Origin: Azolla caroliniana
Taxonomy: Eukaryota > Plantae > Polypodiophyta
Length of the DNA: 64,000 nt
Reading direction: 5' to 3'
NCBI GenBank assembly: GCA_043228905.1
Contig: JBHGNT010000022.1
Coordinates: forward strand, 1,984,001-2,048,000
Below, piece after piece: positions 4,499-60,439 of the stretch. The position numbers and the translations under genes are program-made. Each line of letters starts with the position of its first letter. Position 1 is the first letter of the stretch. The notes beneath the pieces were generated by a model. That model was not told the origin of the DNA, ran no database searches, and saw only the letters and a program-made list of their open reading frames with translations.

Positions 4499-4537
4499 TG
4501 ACAATTTGAACCAATTTCCTCCTCTAGCCTACTTGAG

Positions 4538-4823
4538 TGTCATAGCTAGACTCGAACCCATAACCTTTTGTTACACGGGTCGAGACTTTACCATTAGGTT
4601 ATGAATTGTAATTTGAAGGATATTATTTTCATTTAGGTTTTATTGGGAAATTGATGTATATTCCAGATTTCTCTAGAACATTCTAGAAACTTCAGGAGTA
4701 TTCCTGAAGACACTATAAAAGGAGGCGCAAGGCATTAGTTCGAACCAAATCGGTTCAACGCCAGTCTTAAGCCTTCTAACTACTGTTGTATATCTTCCTT
4801 CATATAATACATATATCTTTCGC

Positions 4824-10285: not shown

Positions 10286-10575
10286 TGATGCGAAAGATAT
10301 ATGTATTATATGACGGAAGATATACAACAGTAGTTAGAAGGCTTAAGACTGGCGTTGAACCGATTTGGTTCGAACTAATGCCTTGCGCCTCCTTTTATAG
10401 TGTCTTCAGGAATACTCCTGAAGTTTCTAGAATGTTCCAGAGAAATCTGGAATATACATTAATTTCCCAATAAAACCTAAATGAAAATAATATCCTTCAA
10501 ATTACAATTCATACCCTAATGGTAAAGTCTCGACCCGTGTAACAAAAGGTTATGGGTTCGAGTCTAGTTATGACA
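9511..10575 (-). mobile_element. Inverted 5' end of a copy-B-type element (LTR 10115-10575, PBS, gag N-terminus)
   Basis: Reverse complement of 4538-5610 with few substitutions; GAT microhomology at the 9511-9513 junction. Confidence 0.93.
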
Positions 10576-13500: not shown

Positions 13501-14454
13501 AATTTTCACATTGGAGATCGGGTGTGGATGCTACAACGACACATCAAGACTACTCGCCCATGTGAGAAGTTGGATTATTGGCGATTAGGTCCTTTCCGTA
13601 TTATCAGAAAGATTAATGATGTCGCTTTTCGTCTCGATCTACCATCTCAACTTCGGATACATCTGGTGTTTCATAGTTCTCTCCTCGAACCCTATCATGA
13701 GAGCACCATCCCAGGACGTATTATACAACCTCCACCCCCGATCAAGCTTGAAGATGGACCAGAGTACGAGGTTGCCACCATCCTTGATTCCAAGATTGTT
13801 CGCAACAAGCTCTACTATCTAGTCCATTGGCTAGGCTATAGTCCCAACGAACGTACTTGGGAACCGATCGAGAATGTGACCAATGCTCGTGGGCTTCTTG
13901 AAGACTTCCATCGTCAATATCCACACAAACCGGGTCCTCCATCCAAAACGACTCGTGACACTCATCGTTTTAAAAGGGGGATAGTGTCATGATATGGCAA
14001 GACTCGAACCCATAACCTTAGGTTATATGGGTCGAGCTCTTGACCATTATATCATCTATTGTAATACGTAGGATATTATTTTCATTTATATTTTATTATA
14101 GGAAATTAATGTATATTCTAGATTTCTCTGGAACATTCTAGAAGCTTTAGGATTACTCTTGAGAACACTATAAAAGGAGGCACTAGGCATTATGTTGAAC
14201 CAAATTGGTTCAACGCCAGTCTTTAGCCTCATAGCCCTTTTGTACTTACTCTTCTTATAATATATAATATGTTATCATCATCTCTCTCTCTCTCTCTCTC
14301 GTCCTCGCTATCTCTCTCTCTCCTCTTCTCTCTTCCTCTCTCGGGAGTCTTACGCAGTTCCTTACTCTTAGTACTAATAGTACTTCCCTTCTCTAGTACT
14401 AATTCTCTCTCTGTTTAATACTAATTCTCTCTCTGTTTAGTACTATTCCTGACA
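10576..14454 (+). mobile_element. Tcn1-like copy C, 5'-truncated and decayed, with chromodomain, PPT and 3' LTR (13985-14454)
   Basis: gag remnant with stops; pol fragments 11218-13992; chromodomain YEVATILDSK...YLVHWLGY...TWEP; PPT AAAAGGGGGATAG; 783-bp deletion at GGAAGCACC (13106-13114). Confidence 0.93.
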
Positions 14455-14456
14455 GT

Positions 14457-14685
14457 TTGAACCAATTTGGTTCAACATAATGCCTAGTGCCATCTTTTAT
14501 AGTGTTCTCAAGAGTAATCCTGAAGCTTCTAGAATGTTCCAGAGAAATCTAGAATATACATTAATTTCTTATAATAAAATGTAAATGAAAATAATATCCT
14601 ACGTATTACAATAGAGGATATAATGGTCAAGAGCTCGACCCATATAACCTAAGGTCATGGGTTTGAGTCTTGCCATATCATGACA
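14457..14685 (-). repeat. Inverted duplication of the LTR U3 region fused to a PBS (fold-back)
   Basis: 229-bp reverse complement of 13985-14213, starting in the PBS 12-mer and ending in TGACA. Confidence 0.93.
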
Positions 14686-15808: not shown

Positions 15809-16334
15809 TGTCATGGACACACCAACCCTAAACTACGATGAAACACGAATGACGTGGCTACGACCGATAAGGTTACAGACGTGGAACTCAACATGATGAG
15901 GCTAGAACTCGGGAAGTTGGGAGCAACGAGATGAGGAACTTAAGACGTTAGGAACAATACAAGAGCGAGCATAAAGACAAAGATGTAAATCAAGGAGAGA
16001 AGATGGGGCTAAACAAGAATACTAGATTGATGTGTCAGTGACTGGTGTTGAATCCCTTGAAAGGGACCAAGGAGTTTACAAGTATTTATTCTATGAGTTG
16101 AAGTACATGCATTAGAATATTTTGGAGAATATTCTAGAACCCTCTAGAACCTTCTAGTTCTAGAACTTTCTAAAAACTCCTAGAACTTAAAATAGATAAT
16201 CTACCAATAATCTACTAAGATATACATAACATGGCCATATATTTGGATGTGTTGGTTAGAACACAACACTTGACTATATATGTCAAGAGGTCAAGAGTTC
16301 AAATCTTGACATGACTGTTGTCATGTCTGTGACA
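15809..16334 (-). mobile_element. Solo LTR (526 bp) of a gypsy family with Tcn1-like termini
   Basis: TGTCA...TGACA termini with GGATC target duplication (15804-15808, 16335-16339); homolog at 22851-28998; orientation inferred from a minus-strand TATAAATA in the homolog. Confidence 0.88.
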
Positions 16335-22850: not shown

Positions 22851-23045
22851 GGGCACACCAAGCACGGACTAGGACGGAGCACAGATGATGGGGCTACGAG
22901 CGACGAATGAACTTGGAGCTAGATGTGACGAGGCTAGGAACTGTCATGAACAGTACTGAGACAGAGAAGGAATTAGTACTAAACGAAGGATTAGTACTAT
23001 GAGAGGTGTGGAACTTCTTTGAGAGAAGGAAGAAGTGAGCGAGAC

Positions 23046-23077
<32 letters not shown>

Positions 23078-23305
23078 TGATGATAAGAAAGATATTTATT
23101 ATATGAAGAGAATATACAACGGTGGCTAAAAGGCTTAAGACTGGCGTTGAACCAATTTGGTTCAACATAATGCCTAGTGCCCTCTTTTATAGTGTTTTCA
23201 GGAGTAATCCTGAAGCTTCTAGAATGTTCCAGAGAAATCTGGAATATACACTAATTTCCTATAATAAAATGTAAATGAAAATAATATCCTACGTATTACA
23301 ATAGA

Positions 23306-23360
23306 TGGTCTAATGGTCAAGAGCTCGACCCATATAACCTAAGGTCATGGGTTCGAGTCT
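23306..23360 (+). promoter_or_regulatory. tRNA-like Pol III type-2 promoter module (A box TGGTCTAATGG, B box GGTTCGAGTC), antisense to the LTR
   Basis: 45 nt from the A-box T to the G of GTTC, as in tRNA T8 to G53, with AGGTC at the variable-loop position; equivalents occur in other LTRs. Confidence 0.65.
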
Positions 23361-23367
23361 TGCCATA

Positions 23368-26300
23368 TCATGACACTATCCCCCCTTTAAAACGACGAGT
23401 GTCACGAGTCGTCTTGGATTGAGGACCCGGTTTGTGTGGATATTGACGATGGAAGTCTTCAAGAAGAGCACGAGCATTGGTTACATTCTCGATCGGTTCC
23501 CAAGTACGTTCGCTGGGACTATAGCCTAGCCAATCGACTAGATAGTAGAGCTTGTTGCGAACAATCTTGGAATCAAGAATGGCGGCAACCTCGTACTCCG
23601 GCCCATCTTCAAGCTCGATCGGGGGTGGAGGTTGGATAAGACGTTCTGGGATGGTGCTCTCGTGGTAGGGTTCGAAGAGAGAACTATGAAACACCGGATG
23701 TATCCGAAGTTGAGGAGGTAGATCGAGACGAAAAGCAACATCATTAATCTTTCCAATAATACGGAAAGGACCTAATCGCCGATAATCCAACTTCTCACAT
23801 GGGCGAGTAGTCTTGATGTGTCGTCGTAGCAACCACACCCGATCTCCAATATTAAAACTAGATGGAAGTCGATGACGATCCGCGTAGACCTTGTGTGTTT
23901 GTTGAGCTTGCTGGAGATGAGTAGATAAATCCGCTTGTATCTTGCGTAACCGCTCCAAACGATCCTCCGCGCACGGATTTGTGGATACCTCTGGGGTTTC
24001 AAGTACACTCCACCGGGGGTGACATCCCGTATAAGCATAAAATGGCGTAACTTTAGTGGATGCGTGGATAGAGTTGTTATAGGCAAATTCGGCGAAGTGG
24101 AGAATATCTGCCCAGTCGTCCTGATGATAGCTGAGAAAGCACCGCAGATACTGCTCCAACGTTTGATTTGTTCGTTCAGCTTGGCCGTCAGTTTGTGGGT
24201 GGTAGCCGGAAGAGAGGTTACAAGTGACCTTGAGCATGTTAAAAAGGTGCTTCCAGAATTTTGACACGAACTGGGGTCCACGGTCGCTGATGATACTATC
24301 GGGGAGTCCATGATGCCGACATACTTCACGCATGACAATTTCGGCAGTGTCTTCACTGGAGATCTCCTTAGTACATGGCAAGAAATGAGCCATCTTCGTA
24401 TATCGATCGACCACCGTTAGAATCGCATTGAACCCCTTAGACACTGGAAGATCTGTGATGAAGTCTAGAGCAATGGATTGCCACGGCTTGCTTGGAATTG
24501 ATAATGGTTCTAATAAACCATATGGATGATGCCTTGGCATTTTCGCTCTGCAACATGTATCACAAGTCCGAACAAAATCCTCGACAAATTGTCGCATACA
24601 GGGCCACCAGAATGATCGTTGTACTAAATGTAATGTTTTAGTACTACCAAAATGCCCAGCTGTATATGTGTCATGACAGTTTTGTACTACTCGAAGGCGG
24701 CAAGAACCATTAGGAACATACAAAAGTTCTTTAAAGAAGAGTAATCCATCATGGTATTTGAATTGCCGATAGTCTGTACCTGGTGGTTGCGACTGTGAAC
24801 ACGACGCTCGAGAGGGATCAATTTGTGCTAGTATAGCTTGGGCGAACGCATCTGTCTTCAAGTCTTCACGTATGGTATCGATAACGCGAGAATCCATAGG
24901 CATGTCAAAGATTTGTGTTGCTTGTAATCGTGCCGGTCCCAAGATGACTTGTTTTTGGTTATCGAAAGCTGGCTCGCCGGGACGGGGTGCTAGATACGAA
25001 CGCCGTGATAATGCATCTGCCTTCCCTTGGTGCCTCCCCGGACGATATGTAATTTTGAAGTCGAAACGCGTGAGGAAGTGGGCCCACCGAGCTTGACGTC
25101 GATTCAACACACGAGCATCCTGAAAGTAGGCAAGATTCTTGTGGTCACTAAATACGGTGACTGGATGAGAGGATCCCTCCAGAAAATGCCTCCATTGCAT
25201 AAAAGAATCCACTATTGCCAATAGCTCCTTATCATGGATTTCGTAGTTGATTTCGGTGGCATCAAACTTGCGTGAGTGAAAAGCCACAGGATGTAGCTTT
25301 TCATCATTCCCCTGTTGTGACAGAATGCTCCCCAATGCAAAATCCGATGCGTCAGCTTCGATAATGAATGGTTTCTCCGGATCGACATGAGCTAGAATTG
25401 GAGCCGATGTAAATGCTTTTTTAAGACTCTCGAAAGCCATGTCCGTTTCTTCAGACCAGGTGAACGGTTGTCCCTTCCTGGTAAGTTGTGTGAGAGGTAG
25501 AACGATCTTTGAGTAATCCTGTATGAACTTCCGGTAAAATTTGGCAAAGCCTAAGAAGCATTGCACATCCCGTACCGAACGCGGAGTCTGCCATTCTACC
25601 ACCGTTCTGACCTTAGCTGGGTCCATGGAGATGCCTTCTGACGAAATGATGTAGCCGAGAAATTCCACTTGGTTGCACCCGAAACTACATTTTTCTAGCT
25701 TTGCATACAAACCATGTTCTCGAAGTCGTTTTAGTACTAATAGTACATGAGAATCATGTTCTTCTTGGGTCTTTGAATAAACCAGTAGATCATCCAAATA
25801 GATGATCAAACAATCATCCAATAGATCTCGGAATATATCATTAACCATGTGCTGGAAGACTGCCGGCGCATTAGTGAGGCCGAACGGCATGACAGTATAC
25901 TCGAAGTGCCCATATCTGGTGCGAAACGCGGTCTTCCATTCGTCTCCTGGTCGGATCCGTACGAGGTTATATGCTCCCCGTAAGTCGATCTTCGTGAAGA
26001 ACCTGGCACCATTGATCCGTTCTAAAAGACTTGAGATAAGGGGAAGAGCATACCTATTCCTGATTGTAACCTTATTCAAGCCACGGTAATCTACAACGAG
26101 ACGAAGCGATCCATCTTTTTTCTTGACGAAGAAAATGGGCGCACCGGCTGGAGATTTCGAATGCCGAATGAAACCATTTTCCAAATTCTCCTCTATATAG
26201 GCCCGAAGGACTTCCAGCTCGGTTGGTGACAAATTGTAGATCGGTCCCCATGGCGGCTCTTTTCCCGGTTGTAAATCAATGGGGCAATCGTACGGTCGAT

Positions 26301-26964
26301 GATGAGGAAGTGTGTTGGCTTGTACTTTATCGAACACATCGGTGTAATGGCGATACTTCTCGGGAAGTTGAACGGTGGATTCTTCTTTAGTGGTGTTGGA
26401 GGGGTTTACTGATATTGCAAAGAGGAACATTTCCTCCTTGTGCCCTTCTTTACGCAACTGACGTAGCGAAATGGTTGCCATCTTCTGAGTTGACCCTTGG
26501 GTTTGTCGACACCGGATTTCTCTTGTTCTCCAATCTATGTCAGGGTTATGTAACTCGAACCACGGTAGTCCTAAAACTATAGGATGTTCTGGGATACTAA
26601 TAATATTAAATGATACTACACATACTAAGTTATCTAGGACAATATTAATGGGCTCTGACTCTTCTAGGATATTTCCGGAAGCAATGGGACGTCCATCAAT
26701 GACTACTACAGAGGCTGGACACTGGAGTTTTCTTAGGGATATCTTATGAGCTTGAGCAAATTTCTTATCCATAAAGCAAGAGTTAGCTCCGGAATCTAGG
26801 AGTGCTAGGACATGTACTGGAGGGGTACTTTTAGTACTAACTATTACTTGGGCTAGGAACACATCACTAACTTGCTTAGAGGGAATGGAACCACTAATGG
26901 GCTGCACAGATCTAGGGTTGTCCAACCAAACGGCTCCGATTTTGGCTGGACTTAGTCGTTTAAC
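23368..26964 (-). CDS. pol: Pol (PR-RT-RNase H-IN-chromodomain), probably reached by -1 frameshift from gag
   Basis: 1185-aa ORF with LLDSGA, YLDD, EADASD, HHCC, DDE, GPF and a C-terminal chromodomain; the frame is open back to G_TTA_AAC at 26964-26958. Confidence 0.95.
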   Translation of the reverse strand, partial: VKRLSPAKIGAVWLDNPRSVQPISGSIPSKQVSDVFLAQVIVSTKSTPPVHVLALLDSGANSCFMDKKFAQAHKISLRKLQCPASVVVIDGRPIASGNILEESEPINIVLDNLVCVVSFNIISIPEHPIVLGLPWFELHNPDIDWRTREIRCRQTQGSTQKMATISLRQLRKEGHKEEMFLFAISVNPSNTTKEESTVQLPEKYRHYTDVFDKVQANTLPHHRPYDCPIDLQPGKEPPWGPIYNLSPTELEVLRAYIEENLENGFIRHSKSPAGAPIFFVKKKDGSLRLVVDYRGLNKVTIRNRYALPLISSLLERINGARFFTKIDLRGAYNLVRIRPGDEWKTAFRTRYGHFEYTVMPFGLTNAPAVFQHMVNDIFRDLLDDCLIIYLDDLLVYSKTQEEHDSHVLLVLKRLREHGLYAKLEKCSFGCNQVEFLGYIISSEGISMDPAKVRTVVEWQTPRSVRDVQCFLGFAKFYRKFIQDYSKIVLPLTQLTRKGQPFTWSEETDMAFESLKKAFTSAPILAHVDPEKPFIIEADASDFALGSILSQQGNDEKLHPVAFHSRKFDATEINYEIHDKELLAIVDSFMQWRHFLEGSSHPVTVFSDHKNLAYFQDARVLNRRQARWAHFLTRFDFKITYRPGRHQGKADALSRRSYLAPRPGEPAFDNQKQVILGPARLQATQIFDMPMDSRVIDTIREDLKTDAFAQAILAQIDPSRASCSQSQPPGTDYRQFKYHDGLLFFKELLYVPNGSCRLRVVQNCHDTYTAGHFGSTKTLHLVQRSFWWPCMRQFVEDFVRTCDTCCRAKMPRHHPYGLLEPLSIPSKPWQSIALDFITDLPVSKGFNAILTVVDRYTKMAHFLPCTKEISSEDTAEIVMREVCRHHGLPDSIISDRGPQFVSKFWKHLFNMLKVTCNLSSGYHPQTDGQAERTNQTLEQYLRCFLSYHQDDWADILHFAEFAYNNSIHASTKVTPFYAYTGCHPRWSVLETPEVSTNPCAEDRLERLRKIQADLSTHLQQAQQTHKVYADRHRLPSSFNIGDRVWLLRRHIKTTRPCEKLDYRRLGPFRIIGKINDVAFRLDLPPQLRIHPVFHSSLFEPYHESTIPERLIQPPPPIELEDGPEYEVAAILDSKIVRNKLYYLVDWLGYSPSERTWEPIENVTNARALLEDFHRQYPHKPGPQSKTTRDTRRFKGGIVS

Positions 26965-28103
26965 TCTTCTTCTAACTGACTAAGGACATCAAATTTGTTT
27001 GCTAGATCTGGGATATTAGTACTATTAGGACTATCAGATATCCCTACTGAAATAGGTTCGGATTTAGTACAATTAGAACTAGCGACTATTTGGTTTACCT
27101 GTCTTCTTGGCCTATGGGGGCAATTTATTGCGATATGTCCTGGTCCACCGCAGTAAAGACATAGTCGATTTGTACGGCGTCGCTGCTTTTCTTCTTCGGA
27201 TAATGGCCCTCGACGACGTGTAGTGTCAATCTCCATTGGAGTCGGAGTATTCGCTGGAGACGCATTATATGACTCCCTCGGAAAAGGTCTTGCTACCACT
27301 GAGGCGTAGGTGGGCTCTGATCTTGCCCTCGGCATCTGTAGCTGTCGTTCCGAACGTCGCTCAAAGAGGCGGTTGTCACATCTCACCGCGCGACTGATTG
27401 CTTCTGTTAAGGACTTTGGCTCTTCGGGGAAGGTCAAGAGTAAATCCTTGACGTCGTTGCGTAAACCATAACGGAATTGCTCCATCAACGCTTGATCATC
27501 CCAAGGGATATCGGCGGCGAGTAGGCGAAAATCTGCAGCGTATGCGGAGGCTGGACGGTCACCTTGGCGTAATCGCCGGATTTTGTTGATTGCGGTCCTG
27601 ATGCTGTCAGTATCTCCGAAACATGCTTTAAACTCACCTAGAAACTCTTCAAAATTGTTGAGTAACGGAGATTCCTTTTCTAATAGTGGAGCGAACCATG
27701 ACAACGCTGAGCCACTTAACAAAGTGCCTACTAAACCCACTCGTGATGCATCGGTGGGATATCGGGAAGGATGCATTTGAATAACTAATCGTACCTGGTT
27801 AAGGAACCCTCTAAACTGCGATCGCGTTCCATCGAACTTCGTGGGAAGGCCAATCTTAGGTTCTTTATGAATCCCTTGTGTTCCGGGCCCATGTTGTTGC
27901 ATCGCTACGATGGTGGCTTCGAGTTGTTGCACGCGTAACGCAAGTTCCCCATGTTGTTGTTGCGTTTGCTGCTTTTCTAAGGAGATTTGCTGAAGATCCC
28001 CCAGCAACCGTTGGTTTTCTTGTTCCAAAGCATGGAACTTCTCCTTCAAGCATTGGAATTCCGAGAAAACAGATTGATATTCTTCAACGCTAACAGTGGC
28101 CAT
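26952..28103 (-). CDS. gag: Gag, 383 aa
   Basis: Intact ORF homologous to 5095-6264 with CCHC knuckle. Confidence 0.95.
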   Translation of the reverse strand: MATVSVEEYQSVFSEFQCLKEKFHALEQENQRLLGDLQQISLEKQQTQQQHGELALRVQQLEATIVAMQQHGPGTQGIHKEPKIGLPTKFDGTRSQFRGFLNQVRLVIQMHPSRYPTDASRVGLVGTLLSGSALSWFAPLLEKESPLLNNFEEFLGEFKACFGDTDSIRTAINKIRRLRQGDRPASAYAADFRLLAADIPWDDQALMEQFRYGLRNDVKDLLLTFPEEPKSLTEAISRAVRCDNRLFERRSERQLQMPRARSEPTYASVVARPFPRESYNASPANTPTPMEIDTTRRRGPLSEEEKQRRRTNRLCLYCGGPGHIAINCPHRPRRQVNQIVASSNCTKSEPISVGISDSPNSTNIPDLANKFDVLSQLEEELND

Positions 28104-28280
28104 GGAATGAAAGAAAAGAGGAATAAAAGATTAGTAGGAAATGAGAGAGACAGAAGGTAGGAAAATTGGTTCAAACTGTCATGAACAGTACTGAGACAGA
28201 GAAGGAATTAGTACTAAACGAAGGATTAGTACTATGAGAGGTGTGGAACTTCTTTGAGAGAAGGAAGAAGTGAGCGAGAC

Positions 28281-28321
<41 letters not shown>

Positions 28322-28998
28322 TGATAAGAAAGATATTTATTATATGAAGAGAATATACAACGGTGGCTAAAAGGCTTAAGACTGGCGTTGAACCAATTTG
28401 GTTCAACATAATGCCTAGTGCCCTCTTTTATAGTGTTTTCAGGAGTAATCCTGAAGCTTCTAGAATGTTCCAGAGAAATCTGGAATATACACTAATTTCC
28501 TATAATAAAATGTAAATGAAAATAATATCCTACGTATTACAATAGATGGTCTAATGGTCAAGAGCTCGACCCATATAACCTAAGGTCATGGGTTCGAGTC
28601 TTGCCATATCATGACAGGAACTCGAGATGTTGTGAGCGACATGAGGGCATGAAGACAAAAATAGATCAAGGAGACAAAGATGAGGCGAAATGAGAATATT
28701 AGATTGATGTATGAATGACTGGTGTTGCATCCCCTTTGAAACGGACCAAGGAGGTTACAAGTATTTATACAGTGAGTTGAAGTACATGCATTAGAATATT
28801 CTTTAGAATATTTTGAAGAATATTCTAGAACCCTCTAGAACCTCCTAGTTTAGAACTTTTTAAAAACTCCTAGAATGTGAATAGATAATCTATGAAAATA
28901 TACATAGCACGATTATGCACTTGGATGTGTTGGTTATAATATAACATTTGACTATAATACAAGAGGTTCAGAGTTCAAATCTTGACATAATTGTGACA

Positions 28999-31959: not shown

Positions 31960-32514
31960 TTACAAATGAAGGGTTAGGTCTAAGTAAGGAGGGGAGAAAT
32001 GGTGTTCATCTTGCTGAAGAGAATTTGTGATGAATCTTCTATGATCATGTTCATGATTGTGAAATGATTGCATAACGCCATTGCCATATTGGGATGGATG
32101 ATCTGATTGACCAAATCGGGCAGAAATCATCGGTTTGGGAACAAAAGAATGAGGTTTGATACCCACAATATTGCTCGAGAACCTTTGTTGATCGTTATAA
32201 CTAATCGTGTCTTCATTGTAATTAATTTTTTGATCAATCATAAGCCCAATATCGCCCTGCCTGATATGATTCCTAAGATTGTTGATATTGTTGCACTTCT
32301 TCGCTGCAGATCTCTCTCTTTTGTGGGCATTTTGATGTCCACCTAAAGCTTGAGAGCTATGGAACTTCCTTGAGCAGAAAAAACAGGGGAAAACTCTTAT
32401 GGGCTCATGATCATTCATACTACTGTCACTATTGTCATTGCCGCTGCTGTTGGAGCTTTGATGGGGATGCAGGATTGGAGCATTAACGTTATTCAAACAA
32501 CTTGTTTCTGACAT
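31960..32514 (-). CDS. Single-finger plant C2H2 zinc-finger protein (QALGGH, ZFP/GIS-like) with C-terminal EAR repression motif
   Basis: Intronless 184-aa ORF: [27 protein letters not shown] and terminal LDLTLHL; (TA)n/TATA region about 110-135 bp upstream. Confidence 0.93.
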
Positions 32515-41057: not shown

Positions 41058-41156
41058 CGTCATATATGATTGTTATAATAGTTAAAGGTCTAACATATAG
41101 ACCAAGACGTCTTGGGCTCGAATCCTTGTAAGGCCAAAATGTTTGTCGTCATGACA
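41058..41156 (+). mobile_element. 99-bp mini-element with (C/T)GTCAT...ATGACA ends and tRNA-like core; candidate minimal solo LTR/TRIM
   Basis: AATCG duplicated at 41053-41057 and 41157-41161; removal restores similarity to the neighbouring repeat near 40911-40955; core ends ACGTC-TTGGG-CTCGAATCC. Confidence 0.75.
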
Positions 41157-47279: not shown

Positions 47280-50242
47280 CAAATTGTAGCTCATCCTGCA
47301 TCTTCCAAAGGTCTTTCTTCATTTCTCCGGTCACGACCATGTACGTAGATGCCCCATTCGGACTGATTTAGACTTGTTTCGCTCCGAGAGTTTTCTTCTT
47401 GTGTGGGCTATCAGGGCTCGAACTATCACTTCCCCATTCCACAACAGTCCGCATTAAAAAACCATTTTTGTTTGGGGCAAGAGCTCTCTCTTGTTCCTTT
47501 TGTGATTCGATGGCACAATTAGGAATTGGATGGTTTCCCCTCCGCTTTGGCTCCGAATCGGTGCAAAAGCCGCTCCGCTATCGAGCACCTTTGGTTCCAT
47601 CCGTGAAGCAGTGAAAAATGGTTGGCCGAGGATCACGGAATGTAAGACCTCATCTTGCACGAAGAAATTTTGGTCAATCTCTACATCTCCGATCTTCACC
47701 ATCACATCCGGACAAGCTGCAAATAGGTCTTACATTGCTTTAGTGGCTGTCCAGATCTTCCATCCATGATTGGTGTTAATATGCCATTTCCCCTTCCGAT
47801 AGAACTGCTTGGACATCAGGTTGATCTCCAATCCATGATCAATCAACGCAACTATGGGCTCTTTGATGTTCCAATCCAGATCGGAGTCTCCATAGTTGCC
47901 CGTGCCTAGTGTGGCTTTGTGTAATGAGAGTTCGGAATCTCATCCTCTACTTCCATATAGTTCATTAGAACACTATTTGCATTCACCCTTGGGGCATTTG
48001 ATTCTTCTGTAGCTTGCGTCTTTCTTTTTACAAGATCCACAAGGAGATCGTGGAATTCGTTCTTTGCTATTCCGAGCAATTCCCGGAGAGAAAACTCCAC
48101 CCGACTATCAAGGATTCTCTCTTCGCACACCTTCTTTAGGTCTATCTATTGTTCGATGTCCGAGGCAAGTTTGAATGCCGGAATCGGTTTCCCTTTTCCT
48201 TTCCCTTCAGAATCCCAGCTCTCCGGTCTCTTCAATGGTCTGGTCACATTATCCGAGCGTCGTCGTTTCTCATCTACACACACCTCATGTAATTGGCGTA
48301 GGGCATATGCACTATTCTTATCTACAGGGCACTCCCATTCTGTAGCTTCTCGGATGACTTCTGTCGTGCTCCAGATTTCATTAGAATCGGTTTTTTCAAA
48401 GATTTCTAGCATTTCTGGCTAGAAAGACAACTTTGCTCTAGATGTCTCTCCCACACGTATTCCCGCGGTTGACGCATACTTGCTTTTTGCCACAATCTCC
48501 TCCGCTAGGACCTTCCTCATGCCGTCTTTTCGGAAGTTCGGTCGAGGTGGCTTCTGAGAGTCCATCGAATGGATCCAATTTCCCTCGTAGTAGATGGGAT
48601 CCCATCGTAGAGCCTCCTTGTGCTCATCGCAATCCTTCCGATCATGTTCGGTGCTATCACACCATATGCATTGACGGTCCATATACTTGGAACTTGTGGG
48701 ACGGTCTTCTGATTTCTTCACCATCACGATTTTCAGATTCTCCATCTCCTTCAGCAACTGCTCCACCGTGGTTGCATCAATTCCCTTCTCGATCATAGTC
48801 TCCCGAGCCCATGGTTGATGGTCTTCGAATCCAGATCTTGGAATTGGAATTGGACCAGGTTCCGAAACCCTTTTCTCTTCATTACCAAGACATTGCCCCC
48901 TCTTTGTGTATCACGCGACGATGTCCGACACATTTTCCCATGTATTGGTGAGGCCACTCTCAATAATCGTATCCTCTAGAAGCACTCCAAGATCTTTCCA
49001 GTCCTAGATGTCCACATCTCATAAGAACATGATCACTTTGATTGGTGCGAGGATAGCTTGATCTCTTACAAACAACCTCCCGAATCGACTTTCGAATGCT
49101 GAAAACACATTGAGGACCTTCAACCCCTTGTCTGATGTTTCCACCCAATCTTCGAATACTCTCTGCGTTGTCTTGGAGGAGTCCTCGATAGCGAAGGTGG
49201 TCTTTAGCGCTTCTTCAAATGCCACCCACGTCAGACTTTGTTGTTGTATCCTGTGGATACTCCCTTGAAGCCCATTCGTAGCCACCCGATTGAAGAATGT
49301 CAATTGCTATCCTTCCGATATTCCGCACCATAGCATCTCCGCCTTGTCATTCCGCAAATAACATGACACATCCTTCATGTTGAATTGCCCGTTCCGTTGC
49401 ACGAGCCACTCTACTACTGCCACAATCTCCAACATCGCACATTGTACTTGTAGCTTCCGCTCGAATGTTGTTAGGCTCTTGTTGATTCTCCATCTCCTTA
49501 CCACCCGTTATCACTTCGGGTTCACCAATTGTGTCGCGCCTTTCAGCATCGGATCGCTGCATGAGTCAGGTGGAAACCATCGAGGTTATGGACTAGAAGG
49601 AGGAAGAATTTGAGGCAAATAGGAATGTGAATAGGTTGTAAGAAAGAGATATTAACCTGTGAATCCCACGAGTGTATTGTAATAGATTTATTAATATTTA
49701 AAACCCTAATAACAAATTAAAATAGATTGGAAAAGAGAGATAGAAAATCGTGAATCACACGAGTATAATCAATTCAATCAATATTTAGAAACCCAAAAAA
49801 GATCGACAACAAACCCTTACAATTTGCTCCCCCGCCCTTATATAGTGATGGGAGAGACTAAGTATATCTTACTACATGCAAACATGATGCTTTTTCTCTA
49901 ACTTGAGTGTTCCTGCACACTAGATGTCTTAGCTTTTTCTATCATACTTTTTTTCTTTTAACTCAAGTATTCATGCACACTAGATGTACATGAATAACTT
50001 TCTTTATCATGCTTATCTAGAATATTTATTATGGATAACTTTTGTGTAATTAGAATCTATACCTTTAATACTCATAATGTGTATAATGGTAAGGCTTGGA
50101 ATTGTTAACATCGAGGTATAGGGTTCAAATCTTGCTATATGCATGGAACATAATTATTTTAGTATTCTCTCCTATTTCTTTATACTTAGTTAATCGGTTA
50201 CTCTACACATATTTTACGTAGTGTACAAAGCACACTACGACA
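47280..50242 (-). mobile_element. Decayed 5' half of a tRNA-Trp-primed gypsy related to 53894-61254 (LTR 49532-50242, PBS, gag-pro, start of pol)
   Basis: Fragmented ORFs match the 708-aa Gag-Pro; PBS TGGTGAACCCGAAGTGA; LTR begins TGTCGTAGTG on the minus strand. Confidence 0.92.
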
Positions 50243-52450
50243 ACACGTCAGATTTTGTCCTCAGTAGTATTTTGTCACAACAAGGCGACGATGAGAAGCT
50301 ACATCTCGTGGCTTTCCACTCGCGCAAATTTGACACCGCCGAAATCAACTACGAGATACATGACAAGGAGCTATTAGAAATAGTGGATTCTTTTGCACAA
50401 TGGAGGCATTTTTAAGAAGGATCTCCTTATTAAGTCACTGTATTCAGTGATCACAAGAATCTTGCCTACTTCCAGAATCCTCACGTATTATATAGACAAC
50501 AAGCTTGGTGGGCCCAGTTCTTCACTCGTTTCGACTTCAAGATTACATATCGTCCAGGCAAGCAACATGGGAAGGTAGATGCATTATCACGATGCTCGTA
50601 TCTAGCTCCTCGTCCTGGTGATCCGGCCTTCGAAAATCAAAAGCAAGTAATCCTAGGTCCGACACGACTTCAAGCAATGTGGGTTTTTGACACTCCATTG
50701 GATTCCCGCATTATTGATACCATACGTGAATATTTGAAGTTAGATATTCTCGCTCAAGCTATTCTAGATCAAATTGATCCCTCTTGGGCATCTTGTTCAC
50801 GGTCACAACAACCAGGTATGTATTATCGACAATTCCAATGTCATGATGGATTACTCTTCTTTAAGAAACTTTTGTATGTTCCCAATGGTTCCTGTCACCT
50901 TCGCATAGTACAAAATTGTCATGACACATACACAATCAGACATTTTGGTAGTACTAAAACGTTGGATTTAGTACAATGATCATTTTGGTGGCCTCATATG
51001 CGAAGATTTGCCAAGGACTATGTTCGAACATGTGATACATGTTGCAAAGCAAAGATGCCTAGACATCATCCATATGGTTTGTTGGAGCCATTATCGATCC
51101 CAAGCAAACCGTGGCAATCTATTTCTCTAGATTTTATCACAAATCTTCCGGATTAAAAAGGCTTTAATGTGATCTTAATAGTGGTAGATCGATATACTAA
51201 GATGGCACATTTCATGCCCTGTAAAAAAGAAACCACTAGCGAAGAAACCACAGGAATTGTTATGCGTGACGTATTTCGGCATCATGGTATTCCCGACAGT
51301 ATCACTAGTGATCGTGGACCTCAGTTCGTCTCTAAATTTTGGAGGCATCTCTTCAAAATGCTCAAGGTCACCTGCAATCTCTCCTCAGGCTATCACCCCC
51401 AAACAGATGGACAAGCAGAATGTACCAATCAAATGCTGGAACAATATCTTCAGTGTTTCCTAAGCTATCAACAAGATGATTGGGCAAATATTCTACACTT
51501 TGTTGAATTTTCTTATAATAATTCTATCCACTCCTCTACTAGGGTTACACCATTCTATGCTTATACAGGCTATCATCCTCGTTGGTGTGTGGTAGAAACT
51601 CTTGAGTTACCCACAAATCTTAGTGCAGAGGATCATTTGGAGCAGTTATGACAAATTCAGGCTGAACTATCTACCCACCTACATCACGCCCAACAAACAC
51701 AGAAGGATTATGCGGATCATCATCGGCTTCCATCCTATTTTGGTATTGGAGAAAGAGTATGGCTATTACGATGGCACATCAAGATTACTCGACCATGTGA
51801 CAAACTGGATTATCAGCGGTTAGGCCCTTTCCGTATTAACGAAAAAATTAATGATGTCATCGTTTGCCTTGATCTACCTCCGCAACTACAGATACATCCG
51901 GTATTTCTAGTTCTCTTCTAGAACCCTATCAAGACATCACTATTCCCAATCGTATTACACCACCTCCACCCCCGATCGAACTTGACGATGGACCTAAGTA
52001 CGACGTTGTTGCCATCCTCGATTCCAAGATTGTTCGCAACAAGCTCTACTATTTGGTCGATTGGGTAGGTTGTAGTCAAAGCGAGCATACTTGGAAACTA
52101 GTAGAGAATGTGGCCAATGCTTGAGCTCTTCTTGAAGACTTCCATCGTCAATATCCAAACAAACCAGGTCCTCAATCAAAGACAACTCGTAACACTCGTC
52201 ATTTAAAAGGGGGGGGATAGTGTCATGATGTGTCTCCAAAAGGATTTGAACCCATAACCTTATGTTACATGGGTTGAACCCTTACCATTCCAGATTCCAG
52301 ATTTCTCTAGAACATTCTAGAAACTTCACGAGTACTCCTGACAATACTATAAATAAAGGCACATGGCATTATTCAGAACCAATTCGGTTCAATGCCAATC
52401 TTAAACCTCCTAGTTATTCTTATATCTTTCTTCATATAATATATATGAAT
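50243..52450 (+). mobile_element. Decayed 3' part of a Tcn1-like element E (RH-IN-chromodomain, PPT, partial LTR 52221-52450)
   Basis: Collinear with the pol of element D, many stops; LTR cut off by a copia LTR at 52451. Confidence 0.92.
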
Positions 52451-53967
52451 TGTTAATGTGCGGAAGCGTCAGACAAAACCGGCTCAGCCAGATAGCAACA
52501 GAAAATGAGATGAAGGTTTAATGGAAAAGCTTCAAACACAAAGGAGACAGAGAGAGCAGAACATAAAACTATATTCAAAAATTAACTCTAAAACTCTGTA
52601 GATACAACGTGCTAAACAACACTATTTATACAAGTCCATAAAGGACTGACAGGTACTTCAATGCTCACAAGTGCGACTGACACTAACTACGAGACAATGA
52701 TTACCTAGTATTCTAGGCTACTACTAGGCTTCCGGTTCCTGCTCGAATCCGGTTCTCCGATCAGGCTCCCCAAATCCGGCCGGTTGTTTCCGGATACCGA
52801 TCCAGCTCATCCTTCCGGATGCTAATCCGGTTCAGGCTTATTCAGCCGATCTGGATCCGGTTGAGCTTGCTTGCTCAACACTCCCCCTCAAGCTCAACTT
52901 GAGGTCGGATCGTGGTGTTAGTATCTGCGGCAGCCGGTCCTTCCACCCGACTCCTTCTAGCGTCGTCTCGCCTTGCTCGCGCTCCTCATCCGGTCCAGTT
53001 CCGCTTCCTGCGACCCGGGCGGTACTGCGCGCCTCGACCTCCTCGGTCGTCTTGTCTGCTCAACATGCCCATTTTAGCTCCCTCATTGTTGCGAGTCAGG
53101 CGCTTGTCGACCCGTCGGCTCCTTTGTGTTGGCGTCGACTTCCGCTTCGTCCGTGTCCGCTTGGCCTTTAGTTGATCTGGCTTCTCCGAATCTTGAACCG
53201 AATCGGTTTCCTTCGATTCGTTCCAGCTCTTGTCCGAGTCGGTGTTCTCCGACCCGACTTCCGATTTCAGGCCCTTCACCACACCGGACCACGTCCGGGT
53301 CTTGGCCGTTTTCTTCTGGTCGGCTCTGTCCTTCTTGACTCTGCTGCCGCAGCCACTTGTTCCGACCTTTTCGAATGTGCCAACTCCTTCGGTCGGTTCG
53401 ACTTCCTTTTTCCTCTTGTCTCCCCCTTTGTTGGTTCTTTCTTCCTCTCCGGCTCCTTGTCCGGTACCATCCATTCCCTTTCCTTTTCTGCCCCTCAAGT
53501 GCGGCACGTCGAGATGCTGAACACCAAGCATTTCCGTGAAGTGCTGTAACTTGTCTGATCCAAGCGGTATGGTGAAGATATCGGCAATTTGCCGATCCGT
53601 CTGGACATACCGAAGTTCTACTTCACCGCTCAAAACCCGCTCACGCACAAAGTGACAGTGAACTTCTATGTGCTTCGTCCGAGCATGGAACACGGGGTTC
53701 TTGGCGAGCTGAATGCTACTCGTGTTGTCACAATAGATCAGGATCGGGGTCCGGACCTCAATCCGTAGGTCTTGCAGTAGTCGCTGAAGCCAGATGGCTT
53801 CACATGTGGCATTGGTAGCGCCCCGGTATTCAGCCTTAGTGCTCGATAGAGCCATTGTTGGCTACTTTTTGCTGCTCCACGCAACATCCGCGCTGTCGTA
53901 GTGTAGGTTGCACACTATGTGGAAATTATATTTTTGTCCCTCCGGATAGAGAATGGAGTGCTCGGTG

Positions 53968-54108
53968 AGAACCGGAAGAAAACGGCATACCGGAAAGGAA
54001 GAAAACGGCATACCGGAAAGGAGGAAAACGTTCCGGAGGAAAACGGCATACCGGCAAGGAGGAAAACGGCATACCGGCAAGGAAGAAAACGGCATACCGG
54101 CAAGGAAG
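53968..54108 (+). repeat. 23-bp tandem repeat GAAAACGGCATACCGG(A/C)AAGGA(A/G) in U3
   Basis: Five full units plus a 15-bp partial unit in the 5' LTR; four units in the 3' LTR (about 60511-60602). Confidence 0.9.
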
Positions 54109-54763
54109 AGCCGGATAAAGAGACATAAATGTAAAAAAGAAGAAGGAATTACTCACTACTGCGCAGGGCGTGATTTGAACTCTGCACCTCCACGTTGACA
54201 AACCCCAACCTTACCATTACATTAACTTATCTTAAGTGTTTTAAATATAGATTTAATACGTATAAGACCTTTATTTATGCATACCTTTATTAAAAGGTAA
54301 ATCGTGTATTTTTTTAATATATGAAAAAGAAAAAACACGAGACACTAAAAATAACTCATGCACATCTAGCGTGCATGAGCCCTATACTTAGGAAATAAAA
54401 AAGCATCACATGCACATTTAGTGTGCATGAACATATGAGAAAAAGCATGTAGCTATGCTTAGTCTCTCCCATCACTATATAAGGATGGGGAGCACATTGT
54501 AGTTGTTGTTGATTATTTGGATTAAGTATTAATCAATACAAAAATTATTCGTGGGATTCACGATTTATACATCTACTTCTCTCTTAACACCCTAAGTACC
54601 AATTAATATAGTATGCTCGTGTGATTCACAAGTTTCTTATCTTTCTCTTTGCTATTTACTCATAATTAATCTCTATCTCACGAACTTCTTTCTCCTAGTC
54701 CAAGACCTCTGTGGTTCCCACCCGACTCACGCAACGATCCGGAGCCGAAAGGCACGACACAGT

Positions 54764-54781
54764 TGGTGAACCCGACGTGAA
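54764..54781 (+). promoter_or_regulatory. PBS complementary to the tRNA-Trp 3' end
   Basis: TGGTGAACCCGACGTGAA is the reverse complement of TTCACGTCGGGTTCACCA (plant tRNA-Trp 3' end as recalled). Confidence 0.85.
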
Positions 54782-54797
54782 GACGGGTGGCAAGGAG

Positions 54798-56837
54798 ATG
54801 GAGGCTCAACAAGCTAACAATATGATGGCGATGTTCGAACGGATGCTTCAAGAACAACGCACGATGTCGGAGATTTCGGCATCAGTAGAGCGGCTCGTGC
54901 AACGCAACGGGCAATTTAATGGTAAGGATGTGTCGCGATATTTGCAGGACTACAAGGCGGAGATGCTCCGGTGCCGGGCTTCGGAAGGACTGCAAGTGAC
55001 ATCCTTTAACCGGGTGGCGACCGACGGGCTTCAAGGGAGTATCCACGGGTTGCAACAACAAAATCCGACGTGGGAAGCATTCGAAGAGGCGTTAAAGACC
55101 ACGTTTGCCATCGAGGACTCCTCCAAGGCAACGCGGAGGGGATTCGAGGATTGGGTGGAAACGTCAGGTAAGGGGCTGAAGGTCCTCGAAGTGTTTTCGA
55201 CATTCGAAAGTCGGTTCGGGAGGTTGTCCGCGAGAGATCAAACTATTCTTGCACCGGACAAAGTCATCATGTTTTTGCGAGCTGTGGACGTCCGGGACCG
55301 GAAAGATCTCGGAGTGCTTCTTGAGGACACGACCACCGAAAGCGGCCTCACCGAAACATGGGAAAGCGTGCGGGATATCGTCGCGCGGTACACGAAGAGG
55401 GGGCAATGGCTTGCCAACGAAGAAAAGAGGGTTTCGGAACCGATTCCGAAACCGAGAACGGGACTGGAAGACCATCAACCGAGGGCTCGGGAGATTACGG
55501 CCGAGAAGGGAGTCGACGCGTCTACGGTGGAGCAGCTGCTGAAGGAGATGGAGAATCTAAAGATCGTGATGGTGAAGAAGTCGGATGACCGCCCCACAAG
55601 CTCCAAATATACGGATCGACGGTGCATATGGTGCGATAGCGCCGAACACGATCGGAGGGATTGCGACGACCATAAGGAGGCGCTACGACGGGATCTCATC
55701 TACTACGAGGGAAACCGGATTCATTCGATGGACTCTCGGAAGCCACTCCGACCGAACTTCCGGAAAGGCGGCATGAAGAAGGTGCTCGAGGAGGAGTTAG
55801 CGGCAAGAAGCAACTATGCGACAACCGCGGGAATATGTGTCGGGGAGTCATCGGGAGCGAAGGCGTCTTTCTGGCCGGAGGTGCTAGGTAACACCGAGAA
55901 AACCGACTCCAACGATATCCGAAACACCGCGGAAGGCGTCCGGGAAGCTACGGGATGGGAGTGCCCTGTCGACAAGAATAGCATATACGCCCTGTGTCAA
56001 TTACATGAGGTGTATGTGGACGAGAAACGACGGCGCACGGAGGATGCGGCCGGACCATCGAAGATACCGGAAAGCTGGAACTCCGGAGGTAAGGGAAAAG
56101 AAAAGGCGACTCCGGCATTCAAGCTCGCCTCGGACATAGAACAACAAACCGACTTGAAAAGAGTGTTCGAGGAAAGAATCTTGGATAGCCGGGTAGATTT
56201 TTCGCTGCGGGAACTACTCGGAATAGCGAAGAAGGAGTTTCACGATCTTCTCGTGGATCTCGTGAAAAGGAAGAGACAAAGTACGGAGGAAAATGCTCCA
56301 AGGGTGAATGCAAATACCGTTTCGATGAACGACACCAAAGTGGAAGGCGAAATTCCGAACTCCCACTATACAAGGCCACACTGGGCACGTGCGACTACGG
56401 AGACTCTGGTCCGAATCGGCAACATCAAAGAACCCGTGCTAGCATTGATTGATCACGGATCGGAGATCAACTTGATGTCCAAGGAGTTCTACCGAAAGGG
56501 GAAGTGGCCTATAAACACCAACCATGGATGGAAGATTCGGGCAGCCACGAAAACGACAGAAAACCTATTTGCGGCTTGTCCGGATGTGACGGTAAAGATC
56601 GGGGATGTCGAAATTGACCAAAATTTCTTTGTGCAGGATGAGGTTTCACATTCTGTCATCCTCGGCCAACCCTTTATCACGGCTTCACGGATGGAGACGA
56701 AGGTGCTCGATAGTGGTGCGGCTTTTGCGCGAATTCGGAGCCAAAACGGAGGGAAATCCGTCCAATTCCTAACGGTGCCGGCAAATCACGAAAGGAACAA
56801 GAGGGAACTCTTGTCCCAAGTGAGAATGGATTTTTAA
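54798..56837 (+). CDS. gag: Gag-protease polyprotein
   Basis: ORF (first ATG after the PBS at 54798) with CIWCDSAEHDRRDC knuckle and ALIDHGSEIN aspartic protease motif. Confidence 0.9.
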   Translation: MEAQQANNMMAMFERMLQEQRTMSEISASVERLVQRNGQFNGKDVSRYLQDYKAEMLRCRASEGLQVTSFNRVATDGLQGSIHGLQQQNPTWEAFEEALKTTFAIEDSSKATRRGFEDWVETSGKGLKVLEVFSTFESRFGRLSARDQTILAPDKVIMFLRAVDVRDRKDLGVLLEDTTTESGLTETWESVRDIVARYTKRGQWLANEEKRVSEPIPKPRTGLEDHQPRAREITAEKGVDASTVEQLLKEMENLKIVMVKKSDDRPTSSKYTDRRCIWCDSAEHDRRDCDDHKEALRRDLIYYEGNRIHSMDSRKPLRPNFRKGGMKKVLEEELAARSNYATTAGICVGESSGAKASFWPEVLGNTEKTDSNDIRNTAEGVREATGWECPVDKNSIYALCQLHEVYVDEKRRRTEDAAGPSKIPESWNSGGKGKEKATPAFKLASDIEQQTDLKRVFEERILDSRVDFSLRELLGIAKKEFHDLLVDLVKRKRQSTEENAPRVNANTVSMNDTKVEGEIPNSHYTRPHWARATTETLVRIGNIKEPVLALIDHGSEINLMSKEFYRKGKWPINTNHGWKIRAATKTTENLFAACPDVTVKIGDVEIDQNFFVQDEVSHSVILGQPFITASRMETKVLDSGAAFARIRSQNGGKSVQFLTVPANHERNKRELLSQVRMDF

Positions 56838-59800: not shown

Positions 59801-60439
59801 CAAGCACCGGTAATGCCAACGGAAACCGCAATCGCGACATGGACAATACTACCGTGGAAGGAAGAGATGAGCCGGGAAGAACTACTAGCGGTCCGGATAC
59901 GACAACTGGAGGGAAGACCGAAAGATGTAGCGGAAGCGTCACGCCGACAACAAGAAGCACGGTTCCGGAACAAAAGCCGGTTCGACACAAAGCACCGACT
60001 ACGACCGAGGAGGATTGAAGAAGGAGATTGGGGGATCGTCTATGATAGTAGCTTGGACCATCAACATACAACGATGCGGAAATTCGCGAAAAGGTGGTTC
60101 GGGCCGTACGAGGTTCGGAAGGTCTTCGACAACGGGACGTACCGACTGTCCGAGTTGGATGGAACAATACTACGAGTGCCTATAGCCGGGAAGCGGGTGA
60201 AGATTTTCAAGAAGCGGACCGACGACAAACCTTATGTGATCCAAGTCGAGGCCGACAAAGAGGAGCAATCGGACGAAGACCACAATGATGCGGGAAGCGA
60301 AGAAAGTGGATTACAACTCATAGTCGACATAAGGGGAGAATCGGAGGAAGCTTCGGATGAAGACGGATACGAAGAATCAAGAACTTCGGCACATACCGGA
60401 GGATGTGCGGGTTTGGAGGGGGCGAGTGTCGTAGTGTAG
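56828..60439 (+). CDS. pol: Pol (RT-RNase H-IN) in the -1 frame, no chromodomain
   Basis: DLYSGY, PQGATNS, FLDD, VDTSPTG, H..H..C..C, ADRGE, NGKIERG, GPY; the frame is open from G_GAT_TTT at 56828. Confidence 0.92.
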   Translation, partial: GFLKRTVAEWGSDSPRSPDTPHRKKSLGAKQVRIGPDGASTYTAVTGGMKKQYRQVEDKLRSASIIKEDEEIVGVIEEVFYGNTLQRLEELAEDKSQGNRVVPVESVEMYEIVAKMGPDALRKEEAMVSTKYKTVEKKVKPAAGPLPADSEQKKKEVSGDPTLRKSVDIGHAFTDETRKKLRIGGGGFLLQEEEKRFREMLEQHGKAFAFTSREIGCIDPKIVEPMVIFTIDHVPWNLKPIPVPRAHIPKVIDLLKEKVAMGILEPSSAPYSNRWFTVPKKNGSLRFIQDLQPVNKVTIRNSGVGPIVDEFAEAFAGRAIYSIGDLYSGYDQFQLAVESRDITTMRTPIGLVRMCTLPQGATNSVAHMMNAMNKVLRDCIPEITMPFLDDIPMKGCAVEEKDETMDDRGCRKFVVDHIHDCEKVLRKLEDVHLTLSGEKSAFGQEEILVVGHLCGPYGRRPSPTKIDAIQAMKEVCESTSEVRRFLGACAFYHIWIPHYAHIADPLYHLLRKGKKFEWKPEHTKAMRKLKKTLWRAESLKKPSYERPIIVTVDTSPTGIGWVINQADSDGSRYPIRFGAKVLNERQRGYAQVKRELWGVVSAIKSDRDYLIGAEVVIETDCLPILGMMRCCTIPDVAMLRWIAYVKSLNPEVRHISGKDNAVADMLSRARFEDDITESDNEEVSEDYFTSEHICRVNVIREFREEEYEGETLMIGKMLQEVEDSTNDKERRAEIRRKKRQVQKFFLENGLIWRTPKRPDGIPLRVVGTKEQRNRIMSEFHESDWAGHRGTWATFVKIKQRYWWKSMYKDVVEFTESCEKCQVYSGVRHRDELHPTFSPTINFKWMVDIVAMPTGIGQKKYLVLAREDLTNQVEGRALRRKTCAAVCQFLLEEVFCRYGCVGQVIADRGELDSDKARGFFAKHGVRLTLTTAYNPEANGKIERGHSPIVKALAKACDGRVKDWPQMLPYALWADRTTHSSVTGYMPAELMTGQAPVMPTETAIATWTILPWKEEMSREELLAVRIRQLEGRPKDVAEASRRQQEARFRNKSRFDTKHRLRPRRIEEGDWGIVYDSSLDHQHTTMRKFAKRWFGPYEVRKVFDNGTYRLSELDGTILRVPIAGKRVKIFKKRTDDKPYVIQVEADKEEQSDEDHNDAGSEESGLQLIVDIRGESEEASDEDGYEESRTSAHTGGCAGLEGASVVV

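Follow-up and report, generated by a model that had tools for sequence, protein, structure and literature searches.

What does a transfer RNA (tRNA)-like sequence do on the antisense strand of the U3 region in long terminal repeats (LTRs) that belong to several lineages of gypsy retrotransposon? The question is raised by the stretch of DNA whose first lines are given above, called the window here (64,000 nt; counts of genes, repeats and LTRs refer to it unless loci are named), which is made up of nested LTR retrotransposons of a land plant. The recurring module is an A-box/B-box pair with the variable-loop sequence AGGT between the boxes. The boxes and the AGGT have been selectively kept while the tRNA fold has been lost, and it is plausible, if just short of probable, that the module is a putative binding site for transcription factor IIIC (TFIIIC), a boundary that would shield the RNA polymerase II (Pol II) promoter of the LTR from outside chromatin and read-in transcription. 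The full-length carriers are a Tcn1-like chromovirus of the first of two clades (I and II) and a Phygy-like element; these and the module copies of the window are as follows.

22942..28616, minus strand: Tcn1-like chromovirus, clade I, with LTRs at 28177-28616 and 22942-23375 and target-site duplication (TSD) GTTCC
53894..61254, plus strand: Phygy-like non-chromovirus gypsy element, with LTRs of 866 and 828 nt, 4-bp TSD GCGC and no chromodomain
23306..23359, plus strand: module (tRNA positions 8-61) with A box 23306-23316, AGGTC 23342-23346 and B box 23350-23359; nt 17-70 of the clade I 3' LTR, antisense to the Tcn1-like element
28547..28600, plus strand: module in the 5' LTR of the clade I element 22942..28616, by paired boxes
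10512..10564, plus strand: module in the clade I LTR starting at 10575 (minus), by paired boxes
4549..4601, minus strand: module in the clade I LTR starting at 4538 (plus), absent from the earlier note's list
14001..14054, minus strand: module in the clade I LTR starting at 13985 (plus), absent from the earlier note's list
14616..14669, plus strand: module in the inverted LTR fragment 14457-14685, its B box changed at C56 to T, by profile
52243..52295, minus strand: module in a clade I LTR that is truncated and more distant, by profile
16245..16305, plus strand: module of spacing 43 in the solo LTR 15809-16334 (minus; TSD GATCC), clade II family, by paired boxes
28923..28981, plus strand: module of spacing 41 in the clade II-type LTR starting at 28998 (minus), host of the clade I insertion, by paired boxes
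54172..54224, minus strand: module in mid U3 of the Phygy-like 5' LTR, with a TATA box at 54476, by paired boxes
60667..60719, minus strand: module in the Phygy-like 3' LTR, by paired boxes
50079..50131, plus strand: module in the LTR at 49532-50242 (minus), which belongs to a second Phygy-like family, by paired boxes
41070..41126, plus strand: decayed module beside a Tcn1-type LTR start, the remainder of the LTR gone, by profile (E 1.5e-4); absent from the earlier note's list

Modules were scored as paired boxes against a tRNA consensus, with a G18-to-G53 distance of 33-45 nt allowed and the variable loop excluded from the score. The box consensus is the one that we take to be that of type 2 RNA polymerase III (Pol III) promoters. 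Its cores agree with those in Kojima 2024 (PMC10886601). At 17.5 bits or more the window holds 14 matches, against a mean of 1.85 and a maximum of 5 in 20 shuffles, so that the excess over shuffled controls expected by an earlier note on this DNA is found; ten of the matches are LTR modules, all with AGGT at tRNA positions 44-47, and four are unrelated. The positive control was a set of 26 annotated phage tRNAs, of which 25 score at least 17.5 bits (median of the set 24.5), and the 23306 copy, at 24.8 bits, is level with that median. Taken LTR by LTR, antisense paired boxes are significant in 7/7 carrier LTRs (p 0.002-0.010; sense strand, p 0.09-0.98), and in these seven scored LTRs the module lies upstream of the TATA box and points away from it; the solo LTR ending at 16334 has no canonical TATA match. 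False positives of the score are gauged by the related locus L004, in which high scores at 1019 and 6343 fall in the pol frame and are chance matches. The copies at 14621 (C56 to T) and 52242 (weak A-box start) score below 15 bits and are recovered by profile (E 1.7e-6 and 1.3e-7).

The ten copies that the earlier note listed were all present where it had placed them, three more were added, and its description of their form and orientation was accurate. The two boxes stand in type 2 promoter order at tRNA spacing, with the B-box core and A14, G18 and G19 kept: the G18-G53 distance is 36 in the copies at 23351 and 28592 and 35 in those at 10556, 52251, 54180, 60675 and 50123, as had been claimed for Tcn1-like and Trp-primed LTRs, and it is 43 (16297) and 41 (28973) in the two clade II-type copies of the solo family. 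The AGGTN reported for the variable loop corresponds to AGGT at positions 44-47. Spacing is 35-36 in 15/17 aligned modules, and the position counts below refer to these 15, the two solo copies being excluded.

Among the 15 modules A14, G18, G19, T20, T47, T54, T55 and A58 are each present in 15/15, G18/G19 and the B core being partly fixed by the anchoring of the alignment, and AGGT is present in 13/15, against 7/19 short-arm control tRNAs. In a motif-blind alignment of eight clade I LTRs, from which the misaligned TATA and primer columns were excluded, mean identity is 0.79 in the B box, 0.84 in the variable loop and 0.75 over A14-T20, compared with 0.44 in the arm between the boxes and 0.25 in the next 70 nt, which bears out the earlier expectation of boxes better conserved than their flanks. 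Between lineages the B box (0.77), positions 44-48 (0.76) and, less so, the A box (0.56) again stand above positions 27-43 (0.27) and 62-72 (0.31). The stems behave otherwise: the anticodon stem pairs at 27/75 (permutation mean 26.4; real tRNAs, 71/95), the acceptor stem at 51/105, which is chance level, and the T stem at 47/75, or 33/60 with the 53-61 pair left out (permutation mean 34.3), compared with 94/95 for the whole T stem of real tRNAs; the T stem of the modules shows no covariation. The loss of most cloverleaf stems, taken by the earlier note to favour a role at the DNA level, thus stands. In the Phygy-like lineage, for which the evidence is two families of the window and aligned contigs, the module is present in contigs of all four runs aligned, changes at positions 15, 52 and 57 stay purine, and C56T occurs at 0.1-15%. 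The module is probably under purifying selection.

That the module descends from a tRNA is supported without the consensus used for scoring, since a profile built only from six clade I LTRs retrieves real tRNAs: its best non-LTR matches are a tRNA-like stretch of phage DNA (E 6e-4) and a tRNA-Arg from a phage (E 9e-4), and the 289 kb of other Tcn1 loci yield only two matches (E 3-4). The same profile scores clade II modules at E 0.002-3.7 and Phygy-like modules at E 0.2-2.6, no better than real tRNAs, and single origin and repeated capture are for this reason not separable. The source would be a tRNA or the head of a tRNA-derived short interspersed nuclear element (SINE). A blastn search of phages with the L045 module produced no useful match; an unannotated tRNA-like sequence lies between genes of a Lactococcus phage (L082, 1470-1530).

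Three closer identities were rejected. A tRNA gene does not fit: ARAGORN makes no tRNA call in the window or in any of the 60 related loci (of 80) given to it, and the acceptor, anticodon and T stems do not pair as those of a tRNA do; with Rfam RF00005 the only tRNA match of the window, the 28923..28981 module, reaches 21.9 bits against a cut-off of 29, and 17 loci give none, so that the scan with tRNA models proposed earlier succeeded with the paired-box score and fell short with Rfam. A specific parent (Asp or Asn by anticodon) was dropped since the anticodon loop varies among copies and families; the TT-GTC-AA singled out by the earlier note is indeed at positions 32-38 of the 54172 copy, the 50081 copy has TT-GTT-AA there, and no weight can be placed on that loop. 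By inspection there is no complete tRNA-derived SINE either, only a head with no body, tail or TSD of its own, the LTR end following 10-50 nt on in Tcn1-like LTRs.

The carriers themselves are young and autonomous in make-up (5.7 and 7.4 kb), with a Pol II promoter downstream of the module, as judged from near-identical LTRs, gag and pol frames and the retained TATA box; the earlier proposal of a tRNA-derived module in autonomous gypsy lineages is in this respect upheld. The LTRs of the clade I element are identical at 434/434 aligned bases with one 6-nt gap, and between them lie a gag frame (26952-28130), a pol frame with a chromodomain (23368-26979; PF00385) and a purine tract directly before the 3' LTR. 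Its LTR reads, in order, att end, antisense module (nt 17-70), AT-rich spacer, an array resembling heat-shock elements (HSEs), TATA box (nt 185) and self-primer segment, the last three being

28453..28470, also 23212-23229, no strand: HSE-like GAA/TTC array between module and TATA box, by sequence match
28387..28432, minus strand: TATA box of the Pol II promoter (starts 28432), with the predicted self-primer at 28399-28388, by sequence match and complementarity

Because the predicted self-primer is complementary over 12 nt to a site after the 5' LTR (28176-28163), the element probably self-primes, and this site in place of a tRNA primer site, together with the chromodomain, is what characterizes Tcn1. 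In L004 the self-primer and primer site (4480-4500 and 4647-4662) differ from those of the window, have changed together and still pair. At 14457-14470 an LTR with its primer site runs into an inverted piece of LTR, the joint lying exactly at the self-primer palindrome, and one contig of run X12 has a strand-switch joint at the corresponding places (22939/23157); the joint at 14457-14470 is possibly a footprint of self-priming or of recombination at the 12-nt match.

The GAA/TTC arrays are labelled by a consensus that we assume to be that of HSEs. They lie between module and TATA box in many Tcn1-like LTRs (window 4676, 10420, 14131, 14522, 16127, 23212, 28453, 28818 and 52310; also L004, L021 and L045), and 16/17 three-unit matches of the window fall inside these LTRs, against 0.84 expected; L008, L009 and L027 have other repeats in their place. 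The arrays suggest subfamilies that may be heat-inducible.

The Phygy-like element has LTRs identical at 827/828 aligned bases and a Trp-type primer site (54764-54780), assigned by what we take to be the 3' end of tRNA-Trp; primer site, a 4-bp TSD of the form NCGN and the lack of a chromodomain all agree with Phygy. Named relatives come from Riccia (a liverwort) and Adiantum (a fern), and the labels Tcn1-like and Phygy-like are given by features rather than by placement in a reverse transcriptase tree among named reference sequences. These relatives and a plant-type zinc-finger frame at 31960-32613 mark the DNA as that of a land plant. The presence of both kinds of element points to a non-seed plant as host (PMC6317226); it may be a fern. 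The solo LTR 15809-16334, which the earlier note had set apart as a further kind, matches the LTRs of the chromodomain elements L021 and L068 at 70-78% and belongs, by this match and the Pol tree, to a second Tcn1-like clade (clade II). At 16.4-29.0 kb the clade I element sits inside a clade II-type LTR, which is apparently cut in turn by a Copia element ending near 22849.

Beyond the window, 80 loci were fetched by a motif-blind alignment of the Pol C-terminus and the 520 nt after the chromodomain were scored; ten loci with less than 120 nt there were left out, leaving 17 of the host group and 53 others. Antisense paired boxes at p<=0.05 occur in 12/17 host-group loci and 3/53 loci from other sources (sense strand, 1/17 and 2/53; Mann-Whitney p 1.7e-5 antisense, 0.93 sense), a contrast weakened by the fact that the host group, one contig-name series holding the closest relatives (up to 81%), is inferred and was defined after the first module results had been seen, and that its 17 loci represent two clades and one unplaced locus rather than 17 independent cases. 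None of the 21 matches of at least 17.5 bits in the other-source Tcn1 loci (288,626 bases), which are likely from mosses and fungi, has AGGT at 44-47, and two scans of viral contigs found no relatives. In a quick Pol tree of 84 rows (L075 dropped) the host-group elements fall into clade I, with the window element, and clade II, with the solo family, L045 and L080, and loci lacking the module lie between them; a single clade for both is rejected by the approximately unbiased (AU) test (p 0.014; 42 of the 84 rows). The module is present in 11/11 clade I loci with enough LTR and in 5/7 clade II loci, being decayed in L010 and missing from L013. It thus tracks the host group across three gypsy lineages and not the Pol tree. 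That young, autonomous elements from three lineages share the boxes, in a pattern that matches the host group and not the element tree, points to a cis-element gained under host-specific pressure.

As to function, a DNA site is favoured over an RNA product because the boxes are kept, the fold is lost and the terminator is not fixed, and the module is no replacement for the Pol II promoter since TATA box and self-primer are intact. A tRNA or tRNA-derived SINE head would have entered the U3 region, and its spread would be due either to repeated capture or to template switching among the LTRs of co-resident families; TFIIIC may then bind the boxes at the outer U3 edge, and the bound complex would guard the promoter from flanking heterochromatin and read-in transcription. 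Antisense orientation might be favoured because it would keep a cleavable tRNA-like sequence off the genomic RNA and place TFIIIB on the promoter side. In yeast, Pol III complexes have barrier, insulator and Pol II roadblock activity (PMC4228148).

Several points weigh against a boundary of this kind, in addition to the limits of the host group given above. The module is not general: the earlier note's claim of several gypsy LTR families holds for three lineages, and the two Met-primed chromovirus LTRs of the window have no significant paired boxes (p 0.60 and 0.49), nor has the Copia LTR near 22.2-22.85 kb a match of 15 bits. The contigs of L013 and L010 carry high coverage in their names (53 and 160), so some families can do without the module. 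Among modules the A box varies greatly in its 5' half, CAA is found at -10..-1 in 3/15 and a T4 terminator, inconsistently, downstream of 7/15. Within the Phygy-like family 1/12 invariant tRNA positions and 23/91 other positions vary at 8% or more, yet an 18-position run (tRNA 17-34), mostly outside the boxes, is invariant too. The Pol III complexes of yeast are also able to repress Pol II promoters close by (PMC4228148), Arabidopsis tRNA genes that are methylated and heterochromatic are silent (PMC7544208), and the module may be unbound where the elements sit.

The alternative that survives best, unlikely as we judge it, is that the module works as a Pol III gene and acts through its antisense RNA, which would pair with the genomic RNA at its U3/purine-tract end or serve as a hairpin precursor, as in foamy viruses, whose LTR microRNAs (miRNAs) require A and B boxes (PMC3993851). 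The 23299-23375 copy folds into one long hairpin (-28.5 kcal/mol, z -4.63) and the 10505 copy reaches z -2.33, but 8/10 folded modules lie between z -1.6 and +0.9, and the long hairpin belongs to one subclade only, where 2/11 pairs have changes on both sides and the covariation term is positive. In the 23306 subfamily the anticodon-arm region repeats the B-box region in inverted form, and the genomic RNA, too, would hold the hairpin, just past the purine tract; the three hairpins that the earlier note described in the 16248 copy are seen in its centroid fold. Upstream DNA is AT-rich (fraction 0.56-1.00 across modules) and T4-T6 runs follow both Phygy-like modules and those of L008 and L009; against this, 8/15 modules have no terminator, and in 52251 and L032 the T4 run starts right at the B-box end. 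With T4 terminators at 7/15 modules only, no fixed RNA product is implied. AT-rich upstream DNA, CAA and T runs are described as weak signals outside angiosperms (PMC13437025). The conserved hairpin and terminator of a foamy-type cassette are accordingly lacking, a strong fold being present in 2/10 and a terminator in 7/15.

The module could instead be a passenger, an old SINE head or tRNA fragment in the ancestors of the LTRs whose box conservation reflects alignment anchoring and slow decay. We consider this unlikely as well, and rank it next. The loss in L013, the decay in L010, the absence from other kinds of LTR, the invariant non-box run in the box-to-flank contrast of the Phygy-like family and C56 to T in several single copies would fit it, but boxes and spacing survive while the arm between them drops to 0.27-0.44 identity, motif-blind alignment included. 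The 50079..50131 module is moreover a 79% island (48 nt) in a 5' U3 otherwise not alignable there between the two Phygy-like families, and the full signature, shared by three lineages of one host group, is found in 0/21 other-source matches.

It is improbable that the conserved letters are Pol II factor sites, or integrase or plus-strand end signals, that merely resemble tRNA boxes. The B box is nearly palindromic and in Tcn1-like LTRs lies 10-50 nt from the LTR end, beside att and the purine tract, but in Phygy-like LTRs it lies 110-280 nt inside U3, three motifs stand in tRNA order, strand and spacing, the LTR-only profile finds real tRNAs, and a stretch of 18-19 nt is identical to phage tRNA-Val and tRNA-Met (E not significant). 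Least probable is insertion bait, in which recruited TFIIIB/TFIIIC would direct family members to each other's LTRs, as yeast Ty elements are directed to tRNA genes: the window is heavily nested and the clade I element lies about 300 nt upstream of the 28923 module, but that is a single case, the site of the Phygy-like element is a Copia frame with no module near it, and chromodomain elements are thought to target heterochromatin marks (PMC6317226).

Extending the putative TFIIIC boundary to the whole genome gives a more doubtful proposal: unrelated autonomous lineages in one plant may each have taken up a tRNA-derived TFIIIC site to serve as a portable insulator at the promoter's outer edge, a host-specific anti-silencing device. 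If true, such LTRs in their thousands would scatter TFIIIC sites over the genome. The modules make a compact test case for TFIIIC sites as plant boundaries and for promoter upkeep in heterochromatin-seeking elements. We know of no plant test of TFIIIC-site boundaries. Counts of tRNAs and pseudo-tRNAs in such genomes may include LTR pieces. PlantRNA 2.0 gives more than 10,000 tRNA-like sequences in Azolla filiculoides; a review gives about 7,500 tRNA genes, ascribed to duplication and repeats, and the main-text passages of the genome paper on this subject offer no explanation of the excess (PMC6786969). If the host is this species or a relative, the modules could explain much of the tRNA-like excess, but ARAGORN and Rfam do not call them.

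Elsewhere in the window, the single host gene candidate is a plant-type C2H2 zinc-finger frame at 31960-32613 (minus) with a C-terminal LDLTL motif and a finger motif that we take to be the one named QALGGH. Short inverted and direct repeats form a hairpin at 16953-17133, with weak Rfam miRNA matches below cut-off; an 83-nt tandem repeat lies at 41202-41452, a 94-nt unit is duplicated at 31246-31461 and a 138-nt direct repeat occupies 38511-38648 and 39633-39768. At 33560-33575 a canonical A-box-like stretch stands alone, with no good B box, as does a B-box-like stretch at 32729-32745.

Among known systems, the two lineages themselves are familiar: Tcn1 combines chromodomain and self-priming (Neumann 2019, PMC6317226; Novikova 2010, PMC2864245) and Phygy a Trp primer site (Trp 81%), a 4-bp NCGN TSD and no chromodomain (PMC6317226), both clades being reported from mosses and lycophytes in passages that mention no tRNA-like U3 module (PMC6317226, PMC2864245). 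The most likely working analogue is the boundary action of yeast tRNA genes and ETC sites, which is independent of a product; there the sites are host loci, whereas here mobile elements carry them (PMC4228148). The foamy-virus LTR cassette is likewise an A/B-box unit in an autonomous retroelement that also uses Pol II, but its hairpin product and terminator are shown experimentally, whereas here neither is conserved and the tRNA variable-loop letters are kept (PMC3993851).

Closest in form are the terminal-repeat retrotransposons in miniature, known as TRIMs. In Cassandra elements plant LTRs, those of ferns included, hold a promoter module for Pol III that comes from a small RNA gene (bioRxiv 10.1101/2023.07.14.548913; PMC10886601); theirs is 5S-derived, in a non-autonomous element, replaces the Pol II promoter and transcribes into the element (bioRxiv 10.1101/2023.07.14.548913). 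Helenus/TRIMp3 has tRNA-derived sequence in both LTRs, conserved at boxes A and B, that yields no functional tRNA, can inflate tRNA counts and is proposed to stem from a SINE insertion into the LTR (PMC10886601). Identity with Helenus was rejected: Helenus elements are non-autonomous, 311-1263 bp long, and are proposed to be transcribed from their own boxes (PMC10886601), whereas the present carriers are 5.7-7.4 kb long with gag and pol, and the antisense module points away from a retained downstream TATA box. According to the sections of Kojima 2024 on this subject, "not a few" Repbase LTRs hold tRNA-like pieces, TRIMs alone were analysed, and an LTR stretch common with autonomous partners was called unlikely (PMC10886601); for such LTR motifs a 2026 sugar-beet paper, in the passages concerned, cites only Cassandra and Helenus/Ajax (PMC13570524). 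A literature search, outside which most subscription papers and Repbase reports lay, found no description of such a module in autonomous plant elements. Earlier small-RNA-derived LTR promoters are those of non-autonomous elements that use them for their own transcription; with autonomous carriers, the opposite strand and an intact Pol II promoter, the module described here is a new form of small-RNA-derived LTR element.

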